Source: an uncultured Leptolinea sp.
GTDB taxonomy: Bacteria; Chloroflexota; Anaerolineae; Anaerolineales; Anaerolineaceae
Assembly: GCA_964476915.1 (NCBI GenBank)
Contig: CAYZCO010000001.1
Location: 4,253 to 68,252 of the forward strand
Direction: 5' to 3'
DNA length: 64,000 nt
Shown here: positions 23,773 through 36,226 of the stretch, piece by piece
Layout of the letters: every line of letters begins with the position of its first letter
Position numbering within the stretch: position 1 is the stretch's first letter
The notes under the pieces: model-generated
The model's input: only the letters and a program-made list of their open reading frames with translations
Told to the model about the DNA's origin: nothing
The model's database searches: none
Translations under genes and position numbers: made by a program

Positions 23773-24093
23773 TTGGGGCGTGTGTATTGCGAGATAATAT
23801 CACAAACAAAAAAGGTTGTCAATCAGCAGAATCTGGATTATTTGGACAAGCATTCTAAACTTATTGCGGGAGAAGTGAAATACAATCTTGATCTTGGAAG
23901 GAAAAAATAGTGGCATCGATGATGCTCTGTATCTATCAGGAAAGTTGATATGAGTGTCAGAGTTTTATCAGCGATTATCCAACTTCCTGATTGAATTCTG
24001 ACCCTGCGTTTGATATAGTTACGGTCGAATTAGGCAGCACATGCAGCACGCCCTGTCTTTTTGCAGGCGGTCTTTGAAAGAAAGGAAACAAAC

Positions 24094-24455
24094 ATGACGG
24101 AAACGGTCCTGGTGGCATATGCCAACCGCTATGGTTCCACCCTCGAGGTAGCAGAGAAAGTCGGGGAGGTCCTACATGACAGCGGGCTGAAGGTTGAAGT
24201 GCGCCCGGCACGGAACGTGAGCTCGCTTGAGCCGTACCGGGCTGTGGTGCTGGGGGCTCCGGTCTTCATCGGTAGCCTGCAAAAGAATATCAAGCGCTTC
24301 CTTTCGAAGCACCAAAAACCCTGGAGGGCATGCCGGTTGCTTTCTTTGCGCTTGGATCCCTCGATGCAACGGCTGAGATGGCGGGGGCGGAGGCCGTGAT
24401 TTATTTACTCAATTATGCTTTTGCAGGTTTTGCAGTAGGAATCCTATCAAACTGA
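24094..24455 (+). pseudogene. Flavodoxin-like gene, frameshifted and 3'-truncated at the island junction
   Basis: Frame 1 (MTETVLVAYANRYGSTLEVAEKVGEVL...) is a good flavodoxin-like N-terminus but decays into Arg-rich junk after KHQK (24316-24399). The shifted frame from the A5 run at 24314-24318 reads KTLEGMPVAFFALGSLDATAEMAGAEAVIYLLNYAFAGFAVGILSN* (credible protein sequence). Its last ~20 codons lie in AT-rich island DNA and the protein is about 30-40 aa shorter than typical flavodoxin-like domains. Confidence 0.5.
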
Positions 24456-24460
24456 GAGTA

Positions 24461-24784
24461 TCAACTGTAATTTCTATTTCTAAACATAGGTTTATCAATT
24501 CCCCTTTTTAATGCAGCCTTTGCTTTTTTGGGTTCTCTAATTATCCAGTCCATAGTTAAAAGAGCTGCAATAGGATCCATACCGTACTCATCAATAAGCT
24601 GCTTTACATGAACATCTTCAAAAGTGATATCTGGTAACGCTGAAACTTCTAAGAAACGAAAAAAAGCATCTTGAATTTCATGTTTTGCACAATGGATTTT
24701 ATCAGCAATAAGCTTGGCATCTTCCCTAGAATATTGGAATTTAGTTGCAAGAACTGTGATTATTTCTTCATTTTCCATTATCAA
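24461..24784 (-). CDS. Hypothetical 107-aa protein, last gene of the island, translationally coupled (ATGA overlap) to the HExxH protein gene
   Basis: MIMENEEIITVLATKFQYSREDAKLIADKIHCAKHEIQDAFFRFLEVSALPDITFEDVHVKQLIDEYGMD... Helical, no recognisable motif. 4-nt start/stop overlap with the upstream gene. Confidence 0.4.
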   Translation of the reverse strand: MIMENEEIITVLATKFQYSREDAKLIADKIHCAKHEIQDAFFRFLEVSALPDITFEDVHVKQLIDEYGMDPIAALLTMDWIIREPKKAKAALKRGIDKPMFRNRNYS

Positions 24785-25371
24785 TTCTCCATGTCCCCGT
24801 ACAATCCAATTTGGATTGCATTCGCATAAGACCAGGCATCAGCTTCTACTGGTTGATTCAAATACATCTCTAAACCGTAAGTTTCTGCATTCTTGTAGTC
24901 TTGCATGTTATCTTTCCATTCCTGGACGATATTTTGGTCAGAAATTATCTCTGGACGCTCAATTGCATAATCTTGATATGCGTGTCGCCCCTCATGGACA
25001 ATAGTATCTACGTTCTCCATTACCGTTTGATCTCCCATGAGGTGATCGTAGTTAACTCGGATAGATTGTCCATTCCATCCGCCAAACACATTATCTTCCA
25101 TTGAGACAGCTTCAACGGGAACCGAAGGTCTACCTTGAATACTTGCCATATTATCTTCCACGTTTTGCAAAGCAGCTAGTCGTTCATTTGCATCCTGAAT
25201 AGTCTCCCAATGTTCCGGTTGAATTTCACTTATTTGTCGCAACGAATCTACTCCATCAGCAATCTGACCCCTAGTCTCTAAGGAATAGCTATCTGTTAGA
25301 TCAGTCATTTGCGGAATATCCGATGGAGTCTCTAAGTTTTCATTTGTGTCTAATGATGTGTTTGAGTCCAT
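24781..25371 (-). CDS. HExxH zincin-like putative metallopeptidase (196 aa)
   Basis: IVHEGRHAYQDY contains HExxH followed by xxQ; a downstream ...LEMYLNQPVEADAWSY could supply a third ligand (Glu). Acidic N-terminal half. Family assignment uncertain (minimal zincin / DUF4157-like). Confidence 0.45.
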   Translation of the reverse strand: MDSNTSLDTNENLETPSDIPQMTDLTDSYSLETRGQIADGVDSLRQISEIQPEHWETIQDANERLAALQNVEDNMASIQGRPSVPVEAVSMEDNVFGGWNGQSIRVNYDHLMGDQTVMENVDTIVHEGRHAYQDYAIERPEIISDQNIVQEWKDNMQDYKNAETYGLEMYLNQPVEADAWSYANAIQIGLYGDMEN

Positions 25372-25384
25372 GTTGGTTGATCAA

Positions 25385-25855
25385 TCAGCCTAATATTTCA
25401 GGATTTGAATTTTCTTCCGTTTCATTTTCGAGGTTATTATAAATTATCCGTTCTGGCGATTCGGGACCTGCTTCAACCAAAACTGCATTACCAAGTTCAG
25501 TTGTGGCATACCGTTCCGATTGTATTGGGGGGGGATTTGAAATAGTATCCGAATCAAGAGGTGATTGGATTAAAGTATCTGAAGGTTGATTTTGGGTAAT
25601 TGATTCTTCGGAATCTCTGGTTGGAGATCCTGGTGGAGGTTGTGTATCACTGCCTGTTTCGGTTGTAAGATTAGAATTCATTTCCATTTCTTCTATACGT
25701 GTGTTTAACCTACTTTCTTGAGCTGCCAATTCTTCGTCTGCACGTCTACCCGCTTCAATAATATCTGGAGATAAGAGGCTATTATCAATAGGTATTAGAC
25801 CTTCATCATTCAATTCACTTCTGTTGTCTACTGGATTGCTATCAATATCATCCAT
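25385..25855 (-). CDS. Acidic Ser/Thr/Pro/Glu/Asp-rich intrinsically disordered protein (156 aa); start abuts the ATPase stop
   Basis: MDDIDSNPVDNRSELNDEGLIPIDN...TGSDTQPPPGSPTRDSEESITQNQPSD... has no hydrophobic core. ATG at 25855 lies adjacent to the stop of the ATPase gene. Confidence 0.4.
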   Translation of the reverse strand: MDDIDSNPVDNRSELNDEGLIPIDNSLLSPDIIEAGRRADEELAAQESRLNTRIEEMEMNSNLTTETGSDTQPPPGSPTRDSEESITQNQPSDTLIQSPLDSDTISNPPPIQSERYATTELGNAVLVEAGPESPERIIYNNLENETEENSNPEILG

Positions 25856-28834
25856 TTATTCCTCCAAAAGTTTGCTCTTGCCATACAGTTCCACAAGTTT
25901 TCGTGCTCGTGATTTTAAAGCATTGTCATTTGACTCTATTGCTAATATTTTATTCATTTCATGTGCAATAAAACAATAAGCCCAACCGATAACATTCTCT
26001 GATGATAATAATTCCTTGTACCTATTTTGAATTAATACTAATACTTCTTTTAAGTGAATTAAAGCGTCTTCTTGATCAACAGAGTTAATTGCTGCTGATA
26101 CTTTTTCGGAGCATTGTTTATAGAATAATGGTTTTTGGAGTATTTGATTGGTGACTGGAACTTTATATTCGCACACATTTCTAGCCTTACACTTACAATA
26201 AATGCACGTTTGCATAGGAGAATACAACGCCCATTTCTCAATCGTCTGATTTGTGTTTGAGGAATCTTTCTTTTGATCTCTATCAATAAAATGTGACCAG
26301 CCTTCTGGTTCAGTAATGTATAAATTAAATTTATGATTCTGCCTTGTCATAAAATGGTTAATTGATATATCATTGGTTACTTGTGCTTTTTTCCTGTCAA
26401 AGGAAGCTTGATCTCCAAATTCAGGAACCTTTAAATGAACGGGTTGTCCAAAAATACTCCTGACAATTGCGAAACCTGGTTTCAAAGTTCGAGCATACTC
26501 TTTTTGGGTCCTATTTAGGTTCGTTATGGTCGAAAATAATTCAAAGCTTGGTGCATCTTCTATCCAGTGCATGATTTTAATAAATGTATTTCCTATAGCA
26601 CCTTTTACTAATATTGTCGGAATCTGTTCGGCTATAACTATTCCTTCTCCATACGCACGTACTTCTGCAAGCATATTGCCGAAGTCCTCGCCGGAACTAT
26701 GCCGAGAATTTCCTTGCATATTGGAGTTTGCGGGGCTTTCTGACATCAAACGATGCGCTTCTTCTATAACTGTAATATGAGGGCTATCTAATGGTCTTGG
26801 ATTAATCTCAACAGTCTCGGTGAAGCAAACTAAAAGGAAACCCATAATTAAAGCGATATCATCTGTCGAACCAATTCTGCCCAATTCCATAATTGTTGGA
26901 TGATCGAGAATTTTTTCAAAAGGCATAGATTTCCGCACATTTACTGTGTACCCGACATTTTCCAAAAGATCTCCAATTCGGATTACTGAGGCTTGTTTTA
27001 CATTATCCCGAACTTCTCCACTATAGTTCAACCGATTAGTAATCTCTTGGATCGCTTCATAAAATTCCGACATTATTGGATAATGATGGGCGTCACTTCC
27101 TCTATCAACAGCAACATTCCACCCGGCATCTCGATAAACTTTTCGTAATGCTTCTCGATAGATCATTGGCAGCGGATCTTGTAAGGAAAAAGCAGATTCG
27201 AAAATTCGCATTAATCGCGAAATGTGGGTTTTTATCAAAATACCATCAGGGACAGCAAAAGGGTTGAACCTGAAAGGAGAAGTAGATTCATCGCCAACTG
27301 TATAGATTAAAAGGTCCTCTTCTAAATCAATAAATCCTTTTAACTCTCTGTAATCTGGTTTGTCAACAGGATATAAAACCATAAATGGGATTTTGTGTTT
27401 TAGCCATAATTGTGAAAGTAAATGTTTTATTGTTGTGCTCTTACCAGAACCAGTCGAACCCGCTATTAAAGCATGACGTGTCAAGTCGCGTACTGGTATT
27501 GTGAATTCCCCATTGGTGGAGCTTCCTCGATGAAAAATCTGGCCAAGACTTATTTTCTTTTCTTTTTGTGCTTCTTTCGATATGACTAATCCATCATTGA
27601 AATTCACTTTTGCTTGTTCGCGTAGCTCTAACTCATCAATTGGGGATATGAAAGGTTCGTTCTTTACCAGGATGCCAGGTAAATATCCAGATTCAGGTGG
27701 AATTGGTAATCTGAACGCCCCATATGCCTCTTGTGCAGTTGCTAAGTATCGCAACCGGATTAAGGGATCGGAGGCAATAGTAAAACCCCAAAAATCATGT
27801 TCAAGAAATCGTATGTTATTTAATTCTGTTCGTAATTGTTGGTCATCAGCTGGTTGAGCAGATACCCATGAGGTTGGGTATTTGTTGGCTGCATTACCCA
27901 TCATTTCAGAACCAAGCGCTTCTACCAAACCGCGTGGACAATCTAATTCACCAACTATATGGACACGTACCATCAGTAATTGTTCACGCTCCACCATTAA
28001 ATTGTCATAAACGAAAACTCCTACCTGTGATCGTTTTCTAATGTATTCTTCTGTAACATCTTCATCTTCTGATGCAGTCTTCTTAAATTGACCGATCATA
28101 AAGCTAACATTGTAGATTTCCTGGTCAAACATTTTGGTGGGTTTGAGACTGATATCAACGAAGCATTTTTGTGGTTGCGCAGATAACACTGCGAAAAATC
28201 GGCTCATCGGATTGGAGTTTTGACTTGGTACAAAAGGATGAGCAATATAATCACCTTTTCTTTCAACTCTAGCAGTTGGTGCAGAGCTTCGAATTGGCAT
28301 ATCTTCGTATTTACGAATTTCTAACACGCTCTCCTTTGATAAATTGTTAAATGGAATTGGCTCATAATATTGCCAGAATTCACGTTCTTGATTAACTGAT
28401 TCCAATGGATAGCCGAAAGGTTCTTCTGTGGGAAAAATGCCAGAAAATTTTTCCCACAGAACCTCTGCAAATTGCTGTGCACTAATTGCATTTTTTGAAA
28501 ATGATTTTCCAAAGAATATGATCTCAACTAAATTTGGTTGGCCAGCGATAGGGTTTGGAGTAGAAATGAACCTGAGAGAAAAAGTTGAATGGTTCTCCCG
28601 AATTCGGGCAAGGTCGTAAATAAACCTGAACTGGCGTTGTTGAATTATTGAAATTCGGTTATTGCCTGGTCTTGTCAAATCATCTGAAATCATTGAGGGT
28701 AAAAATGGTACCCGTGCTGCCCATATTGCATGAACTCCTTCTACTGAACGAAAAGAGAGTCCAATTTGGTTATCAAAACTGAAGGCTTGATTTATTGAAG
28801 TCTTTTCAGATACGTATATATAGGGATAACTCAT
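25856..28834 (-). CDS. HerA/FtsK-superfamily (DUF87/VirB4-like) P-loop ATPase with ~440-aa uncharacterised N-terminal region and C-terminal Cys-rich segment (992 aa)
   Basis: Walker A LIAGSTGSGKST. Walker B HITVIEEAHRLM (hhhhEEAH, the DEAH-like variant typical of HerA/VirB4/TraC-type ATPases). C-terminal CIYCKCKARNVCEYK Cys cluster. N-terminal 440 aa has no recognisable motif. Confidence 0.7.
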   Translation of the reverse strand: MSYPYIYVSEKTSINQAFSFDNQIGLSFRSVEGVHAIWAARVPFLPSMISDDLTRPGNNRISIIQQRQFRFIYDLARIRENHSTFSLRFISTPNPIAGQPNLVEIIFFGKSFSKNAISAQQFAEVLWEKFSGIFPTEEPFGYPLESVNQEREFWQYYEPIPFNNLSKESVLEIRKYEDMPIRSSAPTARVERKGDYIAHPFVPSQNSNPMSRFFAVLSAQPQKCFVDISLKPTKMFDQEIYNVSFMIGQFKKTASEDEDVTEEYIRKRSQVGVFVYDNLMVEREQLLMVRVHIVGELDCPRGLVEALGSEMMGNAANKYPTSWVSAQPADDQQLRTELNNIRFLEHDFWGFTIASDPLIRLRYLATAQEAYGAFRLPIPPESGYLPGILVKNEPFISPIDELELREQAKVNFNDGLVISKEAQKEKKISLGQIFHRGSSTNGEFTIPVRDLTRHALIAGSTGSGKSTTIKHLLSQLWLKHKIPFMVLYPVDKPDYRELKGFIDLEEDLLIYTVGDESTSPFRFNPFAVPDGILIKTHISRLMRIFESAFSLQDPLPMIYREALRKVYRDAGWNVAVDRGSDAHHYPIMSEFYEAIQEITNRLNYSGEVRDNVKQASVIRIGDLLENVGYTVNVRKSMPFEKILDHPTIMELGRIGSTDDIALIMGFLLVCFTETVEINPRPLDSPHITVIEEAHRLMSESPANSNMQGNSRHSSGEDFGNMLAEVRAYGEGIVIAEQIPTILVKGAIGNTFIKIMHWIEDAPSFELFSTITNLNRTQKEYARTLKPGFAIVRSIFGQPVHLKVPEFGDQASFDRKKAQVTNDISINHFMTRQNHKFNLYITEPEGWSHFIDRDQKKDSSNTNQTIEKWALYSPMQTCIYCKCKARNVCEYKVPVTNQILQKPLFYKQCSEKVSAAINSVDQEDALIHLKEVLVLIQNRYKELLSSENVIGWAYCFIAHEMNKILAIESNDNALKSRARKLVELYGKSKLLEE

Positions 28835-28915
28835 TATCTGGCCTTCCTGTGTTTAATAACCAGCAATCATACACGATTACTGAATGAATCAAAAAGTAGA
28901 AAGTCTATATAAATT

Positions 28916-29878
28916 TTAATCACCCCAGGGTTGATTATAATCATCTTGTATCATAGAACTCTCATCACCATATTTTACATTTTGAATTCTACTAATTTCT
29001 TCCTTGGTTGATGCAATTTGGGGGATTAATTGACCATTTATGTACTCACTTACTGACTTTTTCCGATTGGATATCACTTTTATACTAGATAGTAACGAAA
29101 AAACACCAATTAATATAATCAATACAATAAAGAATGCAGCCCAGCTTTCAGTGGAAAAACCAACAATAGCTGATAACATTAAAGCCCCTATTCTAAACAA
29201 ACCACCTATGCAACTTGATCCAGCGGTTTTGTTTAATTCAGGGTGGGCACGAATAATGCTTGTGTAATCCGTTTGACCATCTTGAAGTTCTGTTTGCAAG
29301 GCCAGGAGTCTTTTTTGTTGATCAGTTAATAGTTCACTTTGAAGTTTCTTGAAATTATCTTCTTTATTTACGCCACAATTTGAGCAGAACTTGTTTGAAA
29401 ATTCGACAAGAGAATTACAATTAGGGCATTTGACCCCAATTCTTTTCCCGCATTTAGCGCAGAATTGTGTGCCAGTTGGATTTGCTTTCTTGCACTTTGG
29501 GTCCGTACAGATCCAGGCGTCCGTTCTTTCAACCTCTTTTTGTTCGGAAGCAGGAAAATGAATGTTACTAGGTCGGGGCGGTGCCATTACTCTATTAACA
29601 GGATTTTGCGCAATGAGAACATCAGGATCTGCAAGACCAGCCATGGTGCCTTGAGCTTGAGCAAGAAATCTATCATACTCATTCCGTTTTTCCGAATTCA
29701 TCAACGTATTTCGGATCTCTTCAAGTTGGTTTAAAGCCTGGTTTGCCTGAGACACAATATTTACATCGTGATGTGTAACTAATGACCGCCATTTTGCGTA
29801 TTGATCGTCTAGTCTTTCTTCAATCTCAGCACTACTTGCATTTGAAGCTAATTTAAGTAATTCATAATAATTAATCAT
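28916..29878 (-). CDS. J-like domain protein (HHD variant of HPD) with zinc ribbons and C-terminal TM anchor (320 aa)
   Basis: N-terminus INYYELLKLASNASSAEIEERLDDQYAKWRSLVTHHD...SEKRNEYDRFL aligns with the DnaJ J-domain (YYEILGV..A...EI..AY..LA.K.HPD...AYEVL.D..KR..YD). Followed by CTDPKCK...CAKCGKR...CPNCNS...CSNCG zinc ribbons and a hydrophobic C-terminal segment (IGALMLSAIVGF...FFIVLIILIGVFSLLS). Confidence 0.55.
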   Translation of the reverse strand: MINYYELLKLASNASSAEIEERLDDQYAKWRSLVTHHDVNIVSQANQALNQLEEIRNTLMNSEKRNEYDRFLAQAQGTMAGLADPDVLIAQNPVNRVMAPPRPSNIHFPASEQKEVERTDAWICTDPKCKKANPTGTQFCAKCGKRIGVKCPNCNSLVEFSNKFCSNCGVNKEDNFKKLQSELLTDQQKRLLALQTELQDGQTDYTSIIRAHPELNKTAGSSCIGGLFRIGALMLSAIVGFSTESWAAFFIVLIILIGVFSLLSSIKVISNRKKSVSEYINGQLIPQIASTKEEISRIQNVKYGDESSMIQDDYNQPWGD

Positions 29879-29907
29879 TATTCTCCTCGGTTTAATACTG
29901 TTTTGGT

Positions 29908-30726
29908 CTATTCATCGTTCTCTGGATACCTGGCAAACCATTGATTCTTCACTTTCCTTGCTTCTAACGAGTTGTTTCGGTTTAATGCGTCTTCATGCCA
30001 TCGTTTATAAATGTCCTCCTGCAATGATCTTGCCTTCATAATGTTGGAGCAATTAACAATCACTTCATCTAACAGGTTTATAGATTTCTTCCATGCCGAA
30101 ATGTAAGCATACCTTTCTGCTAAAAGATAGTTTGCATCACATTTGATGTTCTTACACTCAACATTGTGTTGATCTAACGAAAGGCAAATACTTGATTGTT
30201 CAAGTGCAATATCAAGTTGGTCATGCTCAAAGGCATCCTTAGCGTAAAGTATGCTCAATTTTAAGTTTACAGGATTCAAGGTATTCTTATTTACCATAAA
30301 ACGTTTGGCCATTTTTAAATTGCTTTTTGCGCAGGCATAATCACCAGATTGGATGCAATTCTGCGCTACGTGCAATGATTCAACACCTTTTGTTTGCATT
30401 TTCCTTATAAAAACACCAATGATCACTATTCCAATGATTAAAATTATGCCAATAATTATGCTTATAATGATTGTTTGGCGTAATCTTAAAATAAACCAAG
30501 GTTTATCTTCAAGTTTCGGGAACGTTGCTGTGTTATCAGTCAAATTTTCTTGAAAAGCGATAAAATCATCTCTTAGTTTTTCTTTTGTTTCGTTCAGAAA
30601 TTCATCGCTTTTTTTGTAAGCGCGCATGTTTATTCCACATCCAGAGCAGATTTCTATGCCGATTGAATTGAAAAATCCACAACTTGGACAACAAATATGC
30701 AGAGGAGATGGATTATTTACCTTCAT
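29908..30726 (-). CDS. Zinc-ribbon / single-pass membrane / Cys-containing helical-repeat (TPR-like) protein (272 aa)
   Basis: N-terminal CPSCG...CSGCG zinc ribbon; TM helix IIISIIIGIILIIGIVIIGVF; C-terminal helical domain with several Cys. Its start overlaps the stop of the upstream gene at 30726. Confidence 0.45.
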   Translation of the reverse strand: MKVNNPSPLHICCPSCGFFNSIGIEICSGCGINMRAYKKSDEFLNETKEKLRDDFIAFQENLTDNTATFPKLEDKPWFILRLRQTIIISIIIGIILIIGIVIIGVFIRKMQTKGVESLHVAQNCIQSGDYACAKSNLKMAKRFMVNKNTLNPVNLKLSILYAKDAFEHDQLDIALEQSSICLSLDQHNVECKNIKCDANYLLAERYAYISAWKKSINLLDEVIVNCSNIMKARSLQEDIYKRWHEDALNRNNSLEARKVKNQWFARYPENDE

Positions 30727-31382
30727 TACACTTGTGTGAGTTTATTGAATATTATGTATGCTGTTATTAAAAAAATGAAAATCAGCAAAATTACTACAGC
30801 CCACAACAATAACCCTCTTACAATAAATCTTTGATTTGCTGTTTCTACAATTTTTGCATTGCGTTGAATCTCGTCCCTTTCGAGATCCGTACGTTGTTCA
30901 GCTGCTATGGCAGTTATGTATCGATTATTGTCAAACTCACTAATTATCGTTTTACATCTTTCACATACCCTGGTATTCAAGTTAATTATGTGGCCACATG
31001 AAGGACAAGATCGAGATGTTTGTTTACCACAATGTTCACATACGAGTGCTTCAATTAGCTTTAAATTCCCGCAATTTGGGCATTGCGATAAAAGAGGTTC
31101 ACCTTGAATATCTTGATTCCATATCGCATCTCTATGTGAAATCATACTGTGTTTGAACTGTTTTTCAGCTACAAGCAGATCTTTGTTATTGGTCCGACTT
31201 TTGATGATATCTAATAAAAATCTAAACGCTTCCTCTAGCCTTTCTCCTTCAGCATGGGCATCTTTAGAAAAATCGTTATGAAGGATAAGCTCGGTTCTTT
31301 TGTTGTTAAATTGTTCAGCAAGAGAACTTTCGGAATAATTTCCTACAATACCAAGGATTTGTTTTGCTGAAACCTCGTCCAT
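30726..31382 (-). CDS. Second J-like domain protein (HND variant) with double zinc ribbon and C-terminal TM anchor (218 aa)
   Basis: AKQILGIVGNYSESSLAEQFNNKRTELILHNDFSKDAHAEGERLEEAFRFLLD resembles a J-domain (weaker than the 320-aa paralog). CPNCG...CEHCG...CPSCG...CERC zinc ribbons. C-terminal TM (LLLWAVVILLIFIFLITAYIIF). Confidence 0.45.
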   Translation of the reverse strand: MDEVSAKQILGIVGNYSESSLAEQFNNKRTELILHNDFSKDAHAEGERLEEAFRFLLDIIKSRTNNKDLLVAEKQFKHSMISHRDAIWNQDIQGEPLLSQCPNCGNLKLIEALVCEHCGKQTSRSCPSCGHIINLNTRVCERCKTIISEFDNNRYITAIAAEQRTDLERDEIQRNAKIVETANQRFIVRGLLLWAVVILLIFIFLITAYIIFNKLTQV

Positions 31383-31387
31383 AGTAA

Positions 31388-32614
31388 TTACCCGACACTT
31401 GCGATTACTTCTCTTACAACCTCAAATAAATATTGTTTACGCCATCCTCTTACATTTGAAGATTCAAATGGCGTATCTTCACCGTCGACCTCAACTGCAT
31501 ATCTTGGTGGGGTATCGGGGAAGTTTGGACCACAACTAAAAACACACATTATTGTTCCCCCAGAATTTTTTGGCATATCAACTCGAATTATATATGACCC
31601 ATTAAAAAGGCCATTTGCATCCGTGCCTGATTTCACTTCCACGTGTGCGCCAGGCAGGGTTTTTAATAGATTAATTTCTTCATTCATCCTTGTTTGGGTA
31701 TTTTGCCCCGGGTTATCTTGCGTTGAGAGGTTAGTGCTATTTTGAAAGCCATATGTGCTATCAAGTCTTGCTTGCTGAGTTGATGGATTATTACTACCCG
31801 CTAAAAGATTATTAAACAACTGCGAAGGGCTTGCAGTACCATTGGAAGATGGTTGTACTAAGAAGCCGCCGGCAGGATCCATATAGCCTTTATCTATCAG
31901 GTCGCGAATAATTTTGATTCGCTCATCTGGTGATGCTTGCATTAACATTGTCCTAATATCCATTTGCGAATTCTGCAATATTGCACTATCTAGCTGCCAA
32001 TTGCGAAATGTTTGAAATTCATCCATGGATTGTTGACTTAATGCATCTTCACCTGAGTCGAGTGCTTTCAAATTTGTAATTATTACATTTAATACTTCTA
32101 TCCCGATTGTTTTCTGTAATTGCATCCCCTTTAATCCCTGAAGAACTCTTGCAGCGAATTCTTCTCTTCTTAGGTTTACTTCATCATAAGTAGCCACGCT
32201 TACAATGGGATTAATAACCATATTGACTCGATCAAATAACGCGTGTAAGGGTTGATCAATTTCTAAAGCAACCATTCGTGCATCTCGAACTTTGTATTCA
32301 ACAACTAGATCAAGATCCAATTGAACAGGAACGGGAAACTTTATTTGATATTTTCTACTGGTTGTGATTGTTAATTGTTTTACGCGCATGTCAACAACGA
32401 CCGCACGTATGTTCCGAAACATTTTATACCTGTAAAGGTAATAGAATCCTGGAGCTAAGGTTTCTTTGTAAACCCCGCCCTCCGTTATTACTGCACAGAA
32501 TCCTTCTTTCACCTCATATTTTCCGCTAAGCAGGGGTAGTGGTATCCCCTGATCCAGTAATTGTTCTGGTCTTACAAGATCCAAATCATTTATAGAATAT
32601 CGATTATCCGTCAT
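31388..32614 (-). CDS. SPFH/band-7 (stomatin/HflK-like) domain protein with Ser/Thr/Asn/Gln-rich linker and unknown C-terminal domain (408 aa)
   Basis: EGFCAVITEGGVYKETLAPGFYYLYRYKMFRNIRAVVVDMRVKQL...LDLVVEYKVRDARMVA...IEVLNVIITNLKALD follows the SPFH core pattern (G.V...G.Y..T..PG..h.P.h..V..V..R.Q........T.D...V.V...V.YRV.D). No N-terminal TM helix. Confidence 0.5.
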   Translation of the reverse strand: MTDNRYSINDLDLVRPEQLLDQGIPLPLLSGKYEVKEGFCAVITEGGVYKETLAPGFYYLYRYKMFRNIRAVVVDMRVKQLTITTSRKYQIKFPVPVQLDLDLVVEYKVRDARMVALEIDQPLHALFDRVNMVINPIVSVATYDEVNLRREEFAARVLQGLKGMQLQKTIGIEVLNVIITNLKALDSGEDALSQQSMDEFQTFRNWQLDSAILQNSQMDIRTMLMQASPDERIKIIRDLIDKGYMDPAGGFLVQPSSNGTASPSQLFNNLLAGSNNPSTQQARLDSTYGFQNSTNLSTQDNPGQNTQTRMNEEINLLKTLPGAHVEVKSGTDANGLFNGSYIIRVDMPKNSGGTIMCVFSCGPNFPDTPPRYAVEVDGEDTPFESSNVRGWRKQYLFEVVREVIASVG

Positions 32615-32823
32615 GATTGTGATAACCTCTCATAAAAATGTATACACTTCAATAAACCCAACCTTGTGTAACCTTGATTGGGCTCTCTTTGAGGACCAAT
32701 GGTTGTGTAGATATTTGTAAGAATATTGTTTTTGAATTCATAGGAAGCGAAATTTTATTAGAAATAGCTTGGTAAAAGTATATATTACTTTTACTATTTG
32801 TGTTAAATGATCCCAATCTTCCG

Positions 32824-34374
32824 TTATTCGATTATTTGGGTTTGCATCCAGAGCTTCTTTGCAGATACTTGGTTGTCTGATTGCCCAATTGCATAATCCA
32901 CTTTCGTTTGGGTCTCTATACCGGTTTCGATATCACGAGCGGAAATCTCTACAACTCCATTGTTGGTACAAGAAATAGTTACTCGTACTTTCTTTCCTGG
33001 AGGTCTGTTTGGAGGTAGTCCATTCAAGAAAAAATCACCAATTGGGTTGCATAAAGCTGGATTTTGAAATTCCCCTTGAAAAACAGTAATTTTTATCCCA
33101 GTTTGGCCGTGAATTTGTGTAACAAATTCTTTTGAAGTATCGAATGGAATTGGACTGTTCTTCTTAATGATAATAGAATTAATTTTTTGATCAGAACCAG
33201 GTACTGTCGCTTCAATTCCTATTGAGTGGCTAAGTACATCTGTGATTTGAAGAGATCCAATTTTATCTACAACCATTGGTTCTAAATTTTCATCTTTTAA
33301 CTTTGATAATTCTAAAGCTGAAACAATTGCAGCCCCAAGGCTAACAGCCTCATCGGGATTGATTGAAATGTCTGGTTCTTTCATAAAAATGTTTTGTACT
33401 GCCTGTCTAACAGCAGGAATTCTGGTTGATCCCCCAGTCAATAACACTCTATCTACTTCTTCCGCTTGGACTTTTGCTGATTTGAGAAGATTTCGAATAA
33501 GGGCTCCAGTTGTATCAAGCTTTGGCTTAATCGCTTCTTCAAATTGTTCTCTTGTTATTGAAACTTGACTCCTATGCCCTTTTGCCCTGACGAGGATCAT
33601 ACATTTATTCCGAACACTTAATTCTTTTTTTGCCTTTTCTGCGTCCATCCGCAATTGCTGATTCTCAGAGGCATCTTCACTTGGATCAAAACCGTGCTCT
33701 TGGATGAATGTATTAACACATAATCGAATAATCGCATCGTCAAAATCCTTACCGCCTAGTTGGTGATCTCCCTCAGAAGCTATTATCCGGATATCCTGAC
33801 CACTGTTTTCCACCCTCATTAAGGTAACATCAAATGTGCCACCACCCAAATCATAAACTAGCACTGATTCGTTGTTTAACTGTTTTTGTGCACCAAAAGC
33901 TATAGCAGCTGCTGTTGGCTCATTTATCAGTTTTAGGATCTTAAATCCGGCCATTTCACCTGCAAGGATAGTTGCTCGACGTCTAACATCATCAAAATAT
34001 GCAGGAACAGTTATCACTGCATACGGCAGGCTATAAGATAAAAGATCCTCGGCGTCCTTTTTCAGTTTCTTTAAAACAAAGGATGAGACATCTGGTGGTG
34101 TCAATCGTTTATCTTTATACTTATAATACCAATTCGGATTCCCCATTTCCCTTTTTGAAAAAAGGACAACTTTATCCGGGTTAGCAATTGCACTTTCTTT
34201 TGCTATTGTTCCGACCACAACAACATTTTCATCAAAGAAAATTGCAGATGGGGTTAGACGGTCTCCTTCAGCATTAGCAATTATTTCGGGTTCTCCATGA
34301 TCATTAATAATTGCTAGTGAAGAATATGTTGTTCCAAGATCTATTCCTGCAGCGCAGATTTTTTTTGTTGGCAT
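32824..34374 (-). CDS. Hsp70 family ATPase, short form (about 517 aa)
   Basis: Start set at MPTKKICAAGIDLGTTYS (the listed ORF begins 15 codons upstream at a TTG). Hsp70 signatures IDLGTTYS, DLGGGTFDV, LLTGGSTRIPAV. Substrate-binding beta domain present; the usual about-100-aa C-terminal lid extension of DnaK is absent. Confidence 0.8.
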   Translation of the reverse strand: MPTKKICAAGIDLGTTYSSLAIINDHGEPEIIANAEGDRLTPSAIFFDENVVVVGTIAKESAIANPDKVVLFSKREMGNPNWYYKYKDKRLTPPDVSSFVLKKLKKDAEDLLSYSLPYAVITVPAYFDDVRRRATILAGEMAGFKILKLINEPTAAAIAFGAQKQLNNESVLVYDLGGGTFDVTLMRVENSGQDIRIIASEGDHQLGGKDFDDAIIRLCVNTFIQEHGFDPSEDASENQQLRMDAEKAKKELSVRNKCMILVRAKGHRSQVSITREQFEEAIKPKLDTTGALIRNLLKSAKVQAEEVDRVLLTGGSTRIPAVRQAVQNIFMKEPDISINPDEAVSLGAAIVSALELSKLKDENLEPMVVDKIGSLQITDVLSHSIGIEATVPGSDQKINSIIIKKNSPIPFDTSKEFVTQIHGQTGIKITVFQGEFQNPALCNPIGDFFLNGLPPNRPPGKKVRVTISCTNNGVVEISARDIETGIETQTKVDYAIGQSDNQVSAKKLWMQTQIIE

Positions 34375-34536
34375 AGTGAAACCCTTATAATTTTTGCATA
34401 TAGAATTATTAAGAATCAACGATTTTCTGAGAAATTTATCTCATGAAGATGGTCCTTTTAACAATCACTTGTTCTTTTTGAATTAGAGTATTATCCCTAA
34501 AAAGAGATACTGGAAATACCATACCTTAAGTATGGG

Positions 34537-35964
34537 TCATTGTACCAAGTTAATCAATGGATCATCTTTGGGAATTTTTTCGAAGTAGGTCGTAAAATAC
34601 TCTTTTAACGGTTTCCATTCAGATGATGACAATAAAGTTTTCGCGTTGTGATTGGCATGCACAAGACCCGCAAAAACTAAAGCAGGAATCAAACCTTCCG
34701 TTAAAGCCATTGGAAATAATTCTTCCGTTAGGGGTGTGAAATGATTATATAGAATTGAAGCGGAAATTGCTTCTCTAATTATCTGATTCTTATGACGCAT
34801 TAGGTTACGCAAAAAGTTAAGGTACTGACTGTTGGCCAAATTGCTCTTCCCTCGAAGCAATGAATCCATCAGAAAAATTAGTGACAATTGGATATTGTTT
34901 GCGTCTGGATTTTTCGACATAAGCGAATCTAAGATTGCGTTTGTTTTGGGATGTACTGCCCCCATAAACAAATAACAACCTGATAAAAACACATCTACGG
35001 AATTTAGCTTTCGAGCATCATCTTTACTCCACATGTTGTCCAGTTTTCTAACCCCGTATGGACCACACAACTTAAGCACAGCGCCCAATCTATACATTTC
35101 TGTATGATAAGTTTGTAACAAATTAGTTGAATCCTCAATTACGTTATTTATTGAAACATATGGAGTAGTAATCAATCCAGTTAGAGAATTCTTTTTACTT
35201 TTATTTTGGTAATAATTAGTAAAACCTGCTATCCCTGCTGAAATAAGAGAAGAAGTGGTACTTTTTAAAGACTGCTTTTTGCCAAATAGCCTCTCTGAAA
35301 TGAGATTCCTGCCGGTTCCACTCGATTCGGATTCATCCGACTCAATATATTGAAAACTGCTTTGATTTATCAGGATTGAGATAATTTCGGGCAAATTTAT
35401 TTGTTCCAAGTTTTTAATTGCGAGAATATCGAAAGGAAATTGAATAAAATTAGCATATTCTGACAACCAGGGTAATTTTGCATTTGATCGAATCTTGCTT
35501 AACGCAATTAATGAATACTCCATATCTTGGAATATGTTATTGTCAACAATCAAGTGGACAACTTTTTCACCCCCAATATCTCCCAGAAGGGAATATAGAT
35601 CCCCTTTTTTCTCTTCCGGAAACATAAACTTGTCTTTCATCTTCCAGAGGCTATCAATAGCTTCGACTGGTTTCACCTCAAAAAGCATTTCTTTTGCTCT
35701 CTCATATGTCTCTCCATTTCCTTTTTCAAAATCATTCAATAAGTTTTGGAGTATATTCGGGGCCAGATATTTGTTCTTGGAGCTTGCATTTGAAGGCCTG
35801 AAGAAAGAATTTAATTCATAAAATAGAGGTGGAATTATCATATCTGAAGATGTTGACTGATTTGCAGATTGCGGCTCAAATTTAACTTTAGTACCGCATT
35901 TACCACAAAACTTTACAGCAGGATTGAGCGCATTTCCGCAATTGAGACATACGTAGTTCTCCAT
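34537..35964 (-). CDS. N-terminal zinc-ribbon protein with large helical domain of unknown function (475 aa); first gene of the island
   Basis: Start at MENYVCLNCGNALNPAVKFCGKCG (AGGAGG RBS 5 nt upstream; the listed ORF extends 10 codons further). CxxC...CxxC zinc ribbon, then helical body, Ser-rich linker around residues 220-260. Confidence 0.5.
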   Translation of the reverse strand: MENYVCLNCGNALNPAVKFCGKCGTKVKFEPQSANQSTSSDMIIPPLFYELNSFFRPSNASSKNKYLAPNILQNLLNDFEKGNGETYERAKEMLFEVKPVEAIDSLWKMKDKFMFPEEKKGDLYSLLGDIGGEKVVHLIVDNNIFQDMEYSLIALSKIRSNAKLPWLSEYANFIQFPFDILAIKNLEQINLPEIISILINQSSFQYIESDESESSGTGRNLISERLFGKKQSLKSTTSSLISAGIAGFTNYYQNKSKKNSLTGLITTPYVSINNVIEDSTNLLQTYHTEMYRLGAVLKLCGPYGVRKLDNMWSKDDARKLNSVDVFLSGCYLFMGAVHPKTNAILDSLMSKNPDANNIQLSLIFLMDSLLRGKSNLANSQYLNFLRNLMRHKNQIIREAISASILYNHFTPLTEELFPMALTEGLIPALVFAGLVHANHNAKTLLSSSEWKPLKEYFTTYFEKIPKDDPLINLVQ

Positions 35965-36226
35965 GATACCTCCTGTTTGGTTGTGAACTATCACTAAAGA
36001 TCTCTTTCAAAAAAATGTATTTACTTAAGAATTCATAAAATCGTTCTAAATAGGAAAATATTATCTAATAAATTTTAACCTAATTTATTCTTTAAGGAAA
36101 ATTAAAGTCCTGGCTCACGATTAAATAGATTATCCAACTTCGGAGTTTATAAGCGTGTCTTGCTAACTGCCCATTAAGAGACTATAATCAGCTTCTGCAG
36201 TAATTGGAAAGAAGGAAAGCAGTACT

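Follow-up and report, generated by a model that had tools for sequence, protein, structure and literature searches.

What does a large ATPase of the FtsK/HerA/VirB4 clade do when its gene runs directly into that of a small, acidic, disordered protein? We addressed this question for a locus in 64,000 nucleotides of DNA from an uncultured Leptolinea sp. (Chloroflexota, Anaerolineaceae; contig CAYZCO010000001.1, positions 4,253 to 68,252), a stretch referred to here as the window, in which a 992-residue ATPase is encoded at 25856..28834 on the minus strand. The ATPase appears to be a divergent VirB4-like translocation ATPase, built from a docking N-domain, a P-loop motor and a C-terminal domain that evolves fast and keeps four cysteines. 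It also seems to power an undescribed, membrane-associated system that is non-conjugative and occurs mainly in filamentous Chloroflexota and has relatives in cyanobacteria. We put the probability that this motor exports toxins, in a manner analogous to a secretion system of type VII (T7SS), at about one half.

A VirB4-like N-domain precedes a conserved P-loop motor

Because more than 240 full-length homologues of ~950-1030 residues can be recognized, the ATPase open reading frame (ORF) is, on comparative grounds, a genuine gene and not a chance ORF. Its Walker A (GSTGSGKST, residues 459-467) and Walker B (VIEEAHRL, residues 689-696) motifs are those read in an initial annotation of the window, and the placement in the FtsK/HerA/VirB4 clade made there holds. 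Residues 429-805 (26420..27550, minus strand) form a RecA-like P-loop domain, the only P-loop domain of the protein, which scores above the cut-offs of the Pfam DUF87 and FtsK_SpoIIIE models and whose core can be superposed on members of the FtsK-HerA superfamily. In an alignment of 40 divergent homologues, Gly459, Thr461, Gly462, Gly464 and Lys465 are invariant, as is the Glu691-Glu692-Ala-His-Arg695 stretch. Our AlphaFold2 model of the ATPase, built on 40 homologues, has a mean predicted local distance difference test score of 85. Members of the superfamily reportedly have in common an arginine finger and, where the sensor-1 strand ends, a conserved glutamine, as Iyer et al. are said to have described in 2004. 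The invariant Arg726 is a candidate for the former, and the invariant Glu736-Gln737 pair, which closes a predicted strand (residues 731-736), would fit the sensor glutamine; both roles are assigned from position. The ATPase itself is soluble, with no predicted transmembrane (TM) segment.

The HerA, mad8, DndH and SspH models of PADLOC-DB v2 match the ATPase, and the closest motor-domain folds include DptH and the HerA proteins associated with Sir2 and DUF4297. The P-loop also yields weak matches to TrwB, TraG and VirB4 models. The NCBIfam VirB4 models cover the P-loop only and score far under their cut-offs (TIGR00929, 12.8 bits against 643; VirB4_plasma, 21.6 against 590; CD1110, 11.9 against 325), and there is no VirB4-family model among the Pfam matches of the ATPase. 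A phage origin was rejected, as PHROGs matches occur at the level of the P-loop only. The NCBIfam model NF033849 ('serine-rich protein') also aligns to the ATPase core (7e-16).

The N-terminal 400 residues (27635..28834, minus strand) match no sequence in Pfam, NCBIfam or the PDB. The region, initially left unassigned, can nevertheless be assigned by fold, as a domain resembling the N-terminal domain of VirB4 and the T7SS component EccE; modeled alone, it reaches a predicted template modeling score of 0.83. The top Foldseek matches of the ATPase are full-length TrwK/VirB4 chains (E-values of 6e-14 to 2.6e-10 over ~890-970 alignment columns), and VirB4 is the sole structural relative of the motor that spans both domains. 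A VirB4-type N-domain thus stands ahead of the ATPase domain, as in VirB4, TraC and CagE. HerA proteins carry a HAS-barrel at their N-terminus, whereas the N-domain described here matches VirB4 and not HerA.

An exhaustive profile search recovered this N-domain in 429 representative clusters; those members that we examined have it either ahead of the same kind of P-loop domain or as a standalone protein of ~380 residues. Two standalone proteins (P0144 and P0150, ~380-400 residues) have no Pfam match, and in larger ATPases the N-domain lies behind long TPR arrays or a receiver domain (P0172, P0184 and P0244, ~1100-1500 residues; P0230, 1161 residues). A fold and a genomic context can now be given to a domain family that numbers over 400 clusters and is not covered by Pfam.

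The C-terminal domain is hypervariable

Residues 806-992 (25856..26419, minus strand) form a family-specific helical domain without a sequence match in the PDB. Mean pairwise identity falls to 0.22 in this domain, against 0.62 in the ATPase core and 0.50 in the N-domain, and one homologue that is 83% identical in both the N-domain and the core retains 33% identity in the C-terminal domain. The cysteine cluster noticed in the initial annotation is present, as the motif CIYCKCKARNVCEY at residues 877-890, but its Cys882 is not conserved: the conserved set consists of Cys877, Cys880, Cys888 and the distant Cys954, which are kept in 37-40 of the 40 sequences. By likeness to the EssC C-terminus, we propose that this domain may serve as a substrate- or leader-recognition module.

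Acidic leaders, exchangeable effectors and immunity-type genes

The stop codon of the ATPase gene (TAA) is followed directly by the ATG of a 156-residue ORF (25385..25855, minus strand), as first noted, and a GGAGG Shine-Dalgarno sequence for this ORF lies within the last codons of the ATPase gene, marking the two genes as translationally coupled. The disordered product is as acidic as was claimed (35 Asp and Glu against 8 Lys and Arg) and matches no family in the libraries scanned, including Pfam, PADLOC, NCBIfam and PHROGs. Its homologues hold the same position in related loci. The acidic partner of the ATPase therefore stands as annotated, but it is not an isolated protein: the equivalent region is fused to an HExxH protein in some related loci (e.g. 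L001 and L014). The L001 fusion protein, of 540 residues and directly coupled to the ATPase, is acidic and disordered over its first ~350 residues and matches the HExxH protein of the window at its C-terminus. Because of this fusion, the 156-residue protein is, as judged from sequence comparison, a detached leader. Proteins of this leader-only kind share a G-x-P-E-x-x-G(W) tail at their extreme C-terminus (window 25385-25855; L009:10826-11194; L041:12432-12773), which might mark these proteins for recognition or be the place where they are processed or conjugated; tagging in the manner of Pup was also considered.

The HExxH protein of the window (24781..25371, minus strand) has 196 residues, of which ~40 form an acidic leader ahead of a zincin-like putative effector domain with the motif HEGRHAYQ. 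It is homologous to the C-terminus of the L001 protein (2e-42) and to L009_195 (1e-47). The family comprises ~99 clusters, mostly from Chloroflexota, and rarely carries SprT-like or DUF3920 labels. We considered whether HExxH is a toxin tip that is widely shuffled among LXG or RHS carriers and rejected this, the family being essentially confined to these systems. The next gene (24461..24784, minus strand) encodes an immunity-type partner of 105-107 residues, which gene callers start at the ATG at position 24778 and which matches no family in Pfam, PADLOC or NCBIfam. Homologues of the 107-residue protein directly follow the HExxH gene in L001, L009, L041 and other loci (1e-17 to 1e-23), and a gene of this type (Imm107) follows HExxH in at least 12 loci. 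A distant HExxH homologue with a 93-residue partner of the 107-residue type (...AALLTLDWLIREP...) lies downstream of a related ATPase in a Bacteroides locus, L135.

The same arrangement recurs with other effectors. Across 52 non-redundant loci, the coupling of the ATPase gene to the next ORF is conserved (same strand, median gap of ~13 nt, frequent overlaps), and the acidity of the first 60 residues encoded by that ORF greatly exceeds the background (Mann-Whitney p = 1e-9). Acidic leaders are joined in other loci to WHH/colicin-DNase domains (3e-18) followed by a SUKH-1 immunity gene (1e-25), to Endonuclease_NS_2 domains (up to 1e-34) followed by a YezG-like gene, of a Pfam family that we take to include the T7SS protein EsaG, or to a papain-like C39/C70 peptidase. 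Tandem toxin/immunity cassettes are found in L009, L041 and L135. SUKH-1 and YezG/EsaG-type immunity genes are hallmarks of toxins that bacteria export against one another, and so is the arrangement of toxin and immunity genes in tandem cassettes. The downstream genes have the organization of polymorphic toxins, with leaders that would correspond to a shared N-terminal trafficking region and have a composition but only a weak motif in common, variable C-terminal toxin domains, an immunity-type gene directly downstream and tandem cassettes. The effectors have no TM segments, and to our reading the acidic N-termini bear no resemblance to Sec signals.

Within a single locus the leaders share 'TDMG' repeats (L009 and L041), which are locus-specific. 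A universal short linear motif was rejected: [STDE]D[IMVL][PG] is enriched, yet occurs in only 11 of 48. In Chloroflexia-type loci with an E1/E2/JAB module, the ORFs after the ATPase are strongly basic, disordered and rich in K/R/S/T/P/Q (L024:12776-13671; L026:12808-14812; L028:13386-14844) and are followed by YbjN/type III secretion system (T3SS) chaperone-like proteins. The toxin array of L041 ends with a 492-residue protein (L041:14925-16403) in which a ubiquitin fold weakly similar to YukD occurs together with a TM segment and a beta-propeller of the PD40 (TolB-like) type; YukD is matched more strongly (3e-10) among the downstream ORFs of related loci.

A conserved membrane-associated neighborhood

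The whole cluster is contained in an island of low GC content (approximately 24450..36200, delimited from composition profiles) that spans 11.7 kb at ~37% GC, against ~53% around it, has sharp borders and looks horizontally acquired. Its ten genes all lie on the minus strand and encode, from 5' to 3', a 485-residue protein, an Hsp70, an SPFH protein, proteins of 218, 272 and 320 residues, the ATPase, and the 156-, 196- and 105-107-residue proteins described above.

We examined ~120 related loci from genomes and metagenomes and counted partners in the 38 non-redundant loci whose flanks were long enough. No partner accompanies the ATPase more constantly than the SPFH protein, present in 33 of the 38. 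In the window this is a 408-residue SPFH/Band-7 protein (31388..32614, minus strand; Pfam Band_7, 8e-10) whose PDB profile matches include HflK (8e-9), stomatin and QmcA. All PDB profile matches of its C-terminal region are to UBC, UEV, RWD or FANCL domains (E-values of 0.008-2), and this RWD/UBC-like domain (residues ~300-408) carries a conserved Y-P-x-x-P-P...W signature in which Pro366, Pro370 and Trp391 are invariant. The SPFH protein mostly has no TM segment. A cysteine just ahead of the YP motif is frequent without being universal, and the RWD/UBC-like domain is kept even in loci that have Hsp70 in place of the E1/E2/JAB module.

Zinc-ribbon or J-like membrane proteins occur in 28 of the 38 loci, in one to eight paralogues per related locus, and membrane proteins belong to every architecture type that we observed. 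The window encodes three zinc-ribbon membrane proteins. The first, of 320 residues (28916..29878, minus strand), combines a J-like domain (Pfam DnaJ, 6e-6), a double zinc ribbon (DZR, 1.3e-9) and a TM segment at ~223-271; in its J-like domain, HHD replaces the catalytic HPD, as it does in 25 of 40 paralogues. The longer motif 'THHD' is seen in such paralogues (e.g. L001, L017 and L020), and HPD in one of the 40. The second (29908..30726, minus strand; 272 residues) has 11 cysteines and a single TM segment at 77-112, and the third (30726..31382, minus strand; 218 residues) has a double zinc ribbon (DZR, 1.2e-7) and a C-terminal TM anchor at 184-218; both keep their positions in related loci.

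Hsp70 is encoded in 21 of the 38 loci and an E1, usually with E2-CBASS and JAB proteins, in five; no locus has both Hsp70 and E1. The window Hsp70 (32824..34419, minus strand; 531 residues; Pfam HSP70, 1e-125) is a paralogue with a C-terminus shorter than that of DnaK. It matches the Pfam model up to position 508 of 599, the segment apparently absent being presumably the DnaK lid, and its score against the NCBIfam DnaK model is 404 bits, under the cut-off of 648. The first gene of the island (34537..35994, minus strand) encodes the 485-residue protein, in which an N-terminal zinc ribbon (Zn_Ribbon_1, 5e-5) is followed by a remainder of ~440 residues; six loci encode homologues, either upstream of the Hsp70 gene or downstream of that for the immunity-type protein. 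Downstream of the ATPase, the HExxH protein is the commonest gene product (19 of 38 loci).

The initial annotation had foreseen a degraded conjugative element in the event that a VirB4-like N-domain was accompanied by conjugation genes. The N-domain is of that kind, but the accompanying genes are lacking in the window and among recurrent neighbors. By Pfam, the island contains none of VirB3, VirB6, VirB8, a coupling protein or a relaxase, and the recurrent neighbor clusters tabulated across the first 76 related loci include no VirB3, VirB6, VirB8, VirB9, VirB10 or VirB11, coupling protein or relaxase.

The full-length ATPase family occurs in Anaerolineae, Ardenticatenia and Chloroflexia (Oscillochloris and Chloroploca) and in filamentous cyanobacteria, and the system is enriched in filamentous multicellular bacteria. 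The cyanobacterial relatives (L045, L052 and L069) have another conserved set of partners upstream of the ATPase, made up of an FHA protein with two TM segments and a YscD_cpl match, TM and TPR proteins of 90 and 142 residues, respectively, and a TM protein that is kinase-like and contains a Pilin_GH domain. Two loci of a Bacteroides sp. (L135:1-12351 and L136) encode two dynamin-like GTPases, a 172-residue protein and, in the same subfamily as ours, a 1139-residue ATPase (26% identity over 402 residues, 2e-38). Behind it come an LHH toxin, an HExxH/Imm107 pair and other pairs of small genes, with an adjoining integrase. The locus looks like a parallel system in which dynamin-like proteins take the place of SPFH.

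A putative toxin-export motor

Toxin export is suggested by the structural models, in which both structured halves of the ATPase match a protein of secretion machines, VirB4/TrwK. It is further suggested, at the level of sequence, by the polymorphic-toxin grammar of the downstream genes (leader, swappable toxin domain, immunity-type gene), by the recurrence of this grammar in Bacteroides, and by the secretion-type accessories of relatives, namely the YbjN/T3SS-chaperone-like, YukD-like and FHA-TM/YscD_cpl proteins. By analogy with EssC, the position of a hypervariable C-terminal domain directly before variable substrate genes also suggests such a role. The acidity of the leaders, the lack of TM segments in the effectors, the membrane proteins found in every architecture type and the frequency of SPFH point the same way.

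The analysis shows domain folds and motifs, a conserved linkage of the genes and, in relatives, families of toxins and immunity proteins; from these we infer a mechanism in which the ATPase forms a hexamer, threads leaders and exports its substrates, and in which the HExxH protein is toxic. The SPFH-RWD protein would form a membrane cage or scaffold, and the small zinc-ribbon membrane proteins could anchor the ATPase ring via its N-domain. Their J-like domains may recruit the dedicated Hsp70, which would hold substrates unfolded. The variable C-terminal domain of the ATPase would read the leaders, acidic and disordered, that the products of the next genes downstream carry, and the hexamer would thread the leader through its pore, stripping off the immunity protein and expelling the toxin from the cell. 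If the motor descends from DNA pumps, its pore would be suited to a polyanionic leader. In the window, the substrate would be the 196-residue HExxH zincin with its 107-residue immunity-type partner, and the 156-residue detached leader could act as an adaptor or co-substrate. The likely role of such a machine would be antagonism between bacteria or kin discrimination.

On these analogies, the closest characterized counterpart of the system is T7SSb. Both have a motor of the FtsK/HerA superfamily with a variable C-terminus next to variable downstream substrates, and the variable C-terminus of EssC tracks the substrates encoded downstream of it (PMC5994694). Both associate Endonuclease_NS_2 toxins with YezG/EsaG-like immunity genes and encode small partner proteins beside their toxins; the T7SS nuclease EsaD needs such partners for export (PMC10653861). 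An SPFH scaffold is likewise common to the two, the SPFH protein FloA scaffolding or aiding T7SS assembly in S. aureus (PMC5718613). A ubiquitin-like protein of the YukD type is present in one related locus, and the N-domain resembles EccE. The systems also differ: EssC/EccC proteins have three or four P-loop domains against the single one found here, and the motor described here has neither TM segments nor an FHA domain. Its leaders are acidic and disordered instead of helical hairpins, the membrane components are different, and neither WXG100 nor LXG is present among the 25 commonest of the 40 families listed for the downstream ORFs.

Several observations weigh against toxin export. A scan of 84 downstream ORFs revealed no toxins targeting the cell envelope, which would need export, and the window encodes no obvious polytopic channel, its three zinc-ribbon membrane proteins having one or two predicted TM segments each. 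The HExxH domain is largely confined to these systems and is not shuffled onto known secretion carriers, and the alternative module of E1, CBASS-type E2 and JAB proteins is best known from anti-phage systems. Finally, the leaders have acidity in common and only a weak shared motif, and a few Chloroflexia loci have basic instead of acidic leaders, which argues against charge alone as the signal.

If toxins are exported, the machine could represent a new type of protein secretion system that shares only its VirB4-like ATPase with type IV secretion systems (T4SSs), a proposal we make tentatively and with less assurance than that of export itself. It would comprise an SPFH-RWD cage, zinc-ribbon membrane proteins, an Hsp70 or ubiquitin-like (Ubl) module and polymorphic toxins with acidic leaders, with related versions in cyanobacteria (FHA/kinase) and Bacteroides (dynamin-like). 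Compared with VirB4, TrwK and TraC, the ATPase lies far under the cut-offs of the VirB4 sequence models and has an additional hypervariable four-cysteine C-terminal domain. Its neighbors are SPFH-RWD, zinc-ribbon membrane and Hsp70 or E1/E2/JAB proteins, as opposed to VirB3, VirB6, VirB8, VirB10, VirB11, a coupling protein and a relaxase.

Alternative functions

An intracellular anti-phage or abortive-infection system is the main alternative, though less probable than toxin export. The SPFH protein, the HerA/VirB4-like ATPase and either Hsp70 or the E1/E2/JAB proteins would sense infection, the ATPase would unfold or remove an immunity-type inhibitor or activate an effector, and the nuclease or protease thus released would kill the infected cell, sparing the filament. 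The low-GC island with its look of horizontal acquisition, the PADLOC HerA and mad8 matches, the kinship of the motor-domain fold with DptH and with Sir2- and DUF4297-HerA, and the E2-CBASS, ThiF E1 and JAB modules of relatives would all be at home in such a system. So would the effectors, all of which are nucleases or peptidases acting in the cytoplasm, and the enrichment of the system in filamentous multicellular bacteria, which it shares with previously described conflict systems (PMC7159879).

PADLOC-DB v2 nevertheless gives no system-level match: the ATPase alone is matched and none of its partners fits a PADLOC system, with no matches at E<=0.1 for the SPFH protein, the acidic protein, the HExxH protein or the 107-residue protein. 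A catalogued defence system was rejected on this basis. Of the HerA-based, defence-like layout proposed in the initial annotation, the coupled arrangement of ATPase and partner stands and is conserved across loci, but the features that define HerA systems, a HAS-barrel together with a NurA, Sir2 or DUF4297 partner, are absent. Compared with Sir2-HerA, DUF4297-HerA, HerA-NurA and the DptH of DndFGH, the partners found here are membrane-associated and the effectors are accompanied by immunity genes. SUKH-1 and YezG/EsaG-type genes and tandem cassettes, as hallmarks of exported interbacterial toxins, speak against defence, and a secretion machine is indicated by the VirB4-NTD/EccE-like domain and by accessories of the T3SS-chaperone-like, YukD-like and FHA-TM kinds. 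The toxin/immunity grammar and the secretion-like partners thus lead us to lean toward toxin delivery over HerA-type defence.

We find it improbable that the locus encodes a machine for membrane protein quality control or proteolysis like HflK/C-FtsH, in which an SPFH cage around a ring ATPase would feed an HExxH metalloprotease, with Hsp70 and J-like proteins assisting and the acidic proteins acting as adaptors or regulators. This idea draws on the homology of the SPFH domain to HflK, stomatin and QmcA, on its pairing with a ring ATPase and an HExxH metalloprotease, on the known ability of SPFH cages to enclose FtsH, on the frequency of the HExxH zincin among downstream genes, and on the dedicated Hsp70 and J-like membrane proteins. 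However, the motor is of the VirB4/HerA type and not an AAA+ protein, and the SPFH protein differs from HflK/C in mostly lacking a TM segment and in its RWD/E2-like end. The protease has a gene of its own, which can be replaced and is accompanied by an immunity-type partner, and, unlike a housekeeping protease, it is swapped in other loci for nucleases or a papain-like peptidase with immunity genes; a low-GC island and a hypervariable C-terminal domain also fit conflict better than homeostasis.

A decaying VirB4/TraC left over from a conjugative element or T4SS whose partner genes were lost would share with our ATPase the VirB4/TrwK-like N- and ATPase domains, the weak TrwB, TraG and VirB4 matches and the low GC of the island, but this was rejected as highly improbable because no conjugation genes accompany the VirB4-like N-domain in the window or among the recurrent neighbor clusters of the first 76 related loci, the same non-T4SS neighborhood recurs in ~120 loci, the catalytic residues are invariant, full-length homologues abound and VirB4 models score far under their cut-offs.

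Significance for Chloroflexota

Chloroflexota are abundant in sludge, sediments and mats, and to our knowledge little has been reported on how they secrete proteins or compete. Toxin export by the ATPase described here would give them a new secretion route and would represent a new form of substrate addressing, in which an acidic disordered leader is read by the fast-evolving C-terminal domain of a VirB4-like motor. Toxin delivery would also become linked to SPFH cages, to an Hsp70 that J-like membrane proteins recruit and to ubiquitin-like conjugation. Should the system instead act in intracellular defence, its architecture would still be new, with a VirB4-like and not HerA-like motor, an SPFH-RWD protein and interchangeable chaperone or Ubl modules. 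Full-text literature searches found no published description of this gene combination, nor is it described in PMC7159879 or in the account of polymorphic toxin-immunity systems of Zhang et al. 2012 (PMC3482391).

Borders of the island

A search for mobility signatures at the borders of the island found no tRNA genes, and no integrase-like gene was noticed. At the low-coordinate border, a 112-residue ORF (24061-24399, plus strand) has a flavodoxin-like look and an R/L-rich tail that is seemingly out of frame, perhaps because the insertion truncated or frameshifted it. A Leptolinea metagenome-assembled genome (L013) carries the same insertion with the same gene order, at 91% identity.

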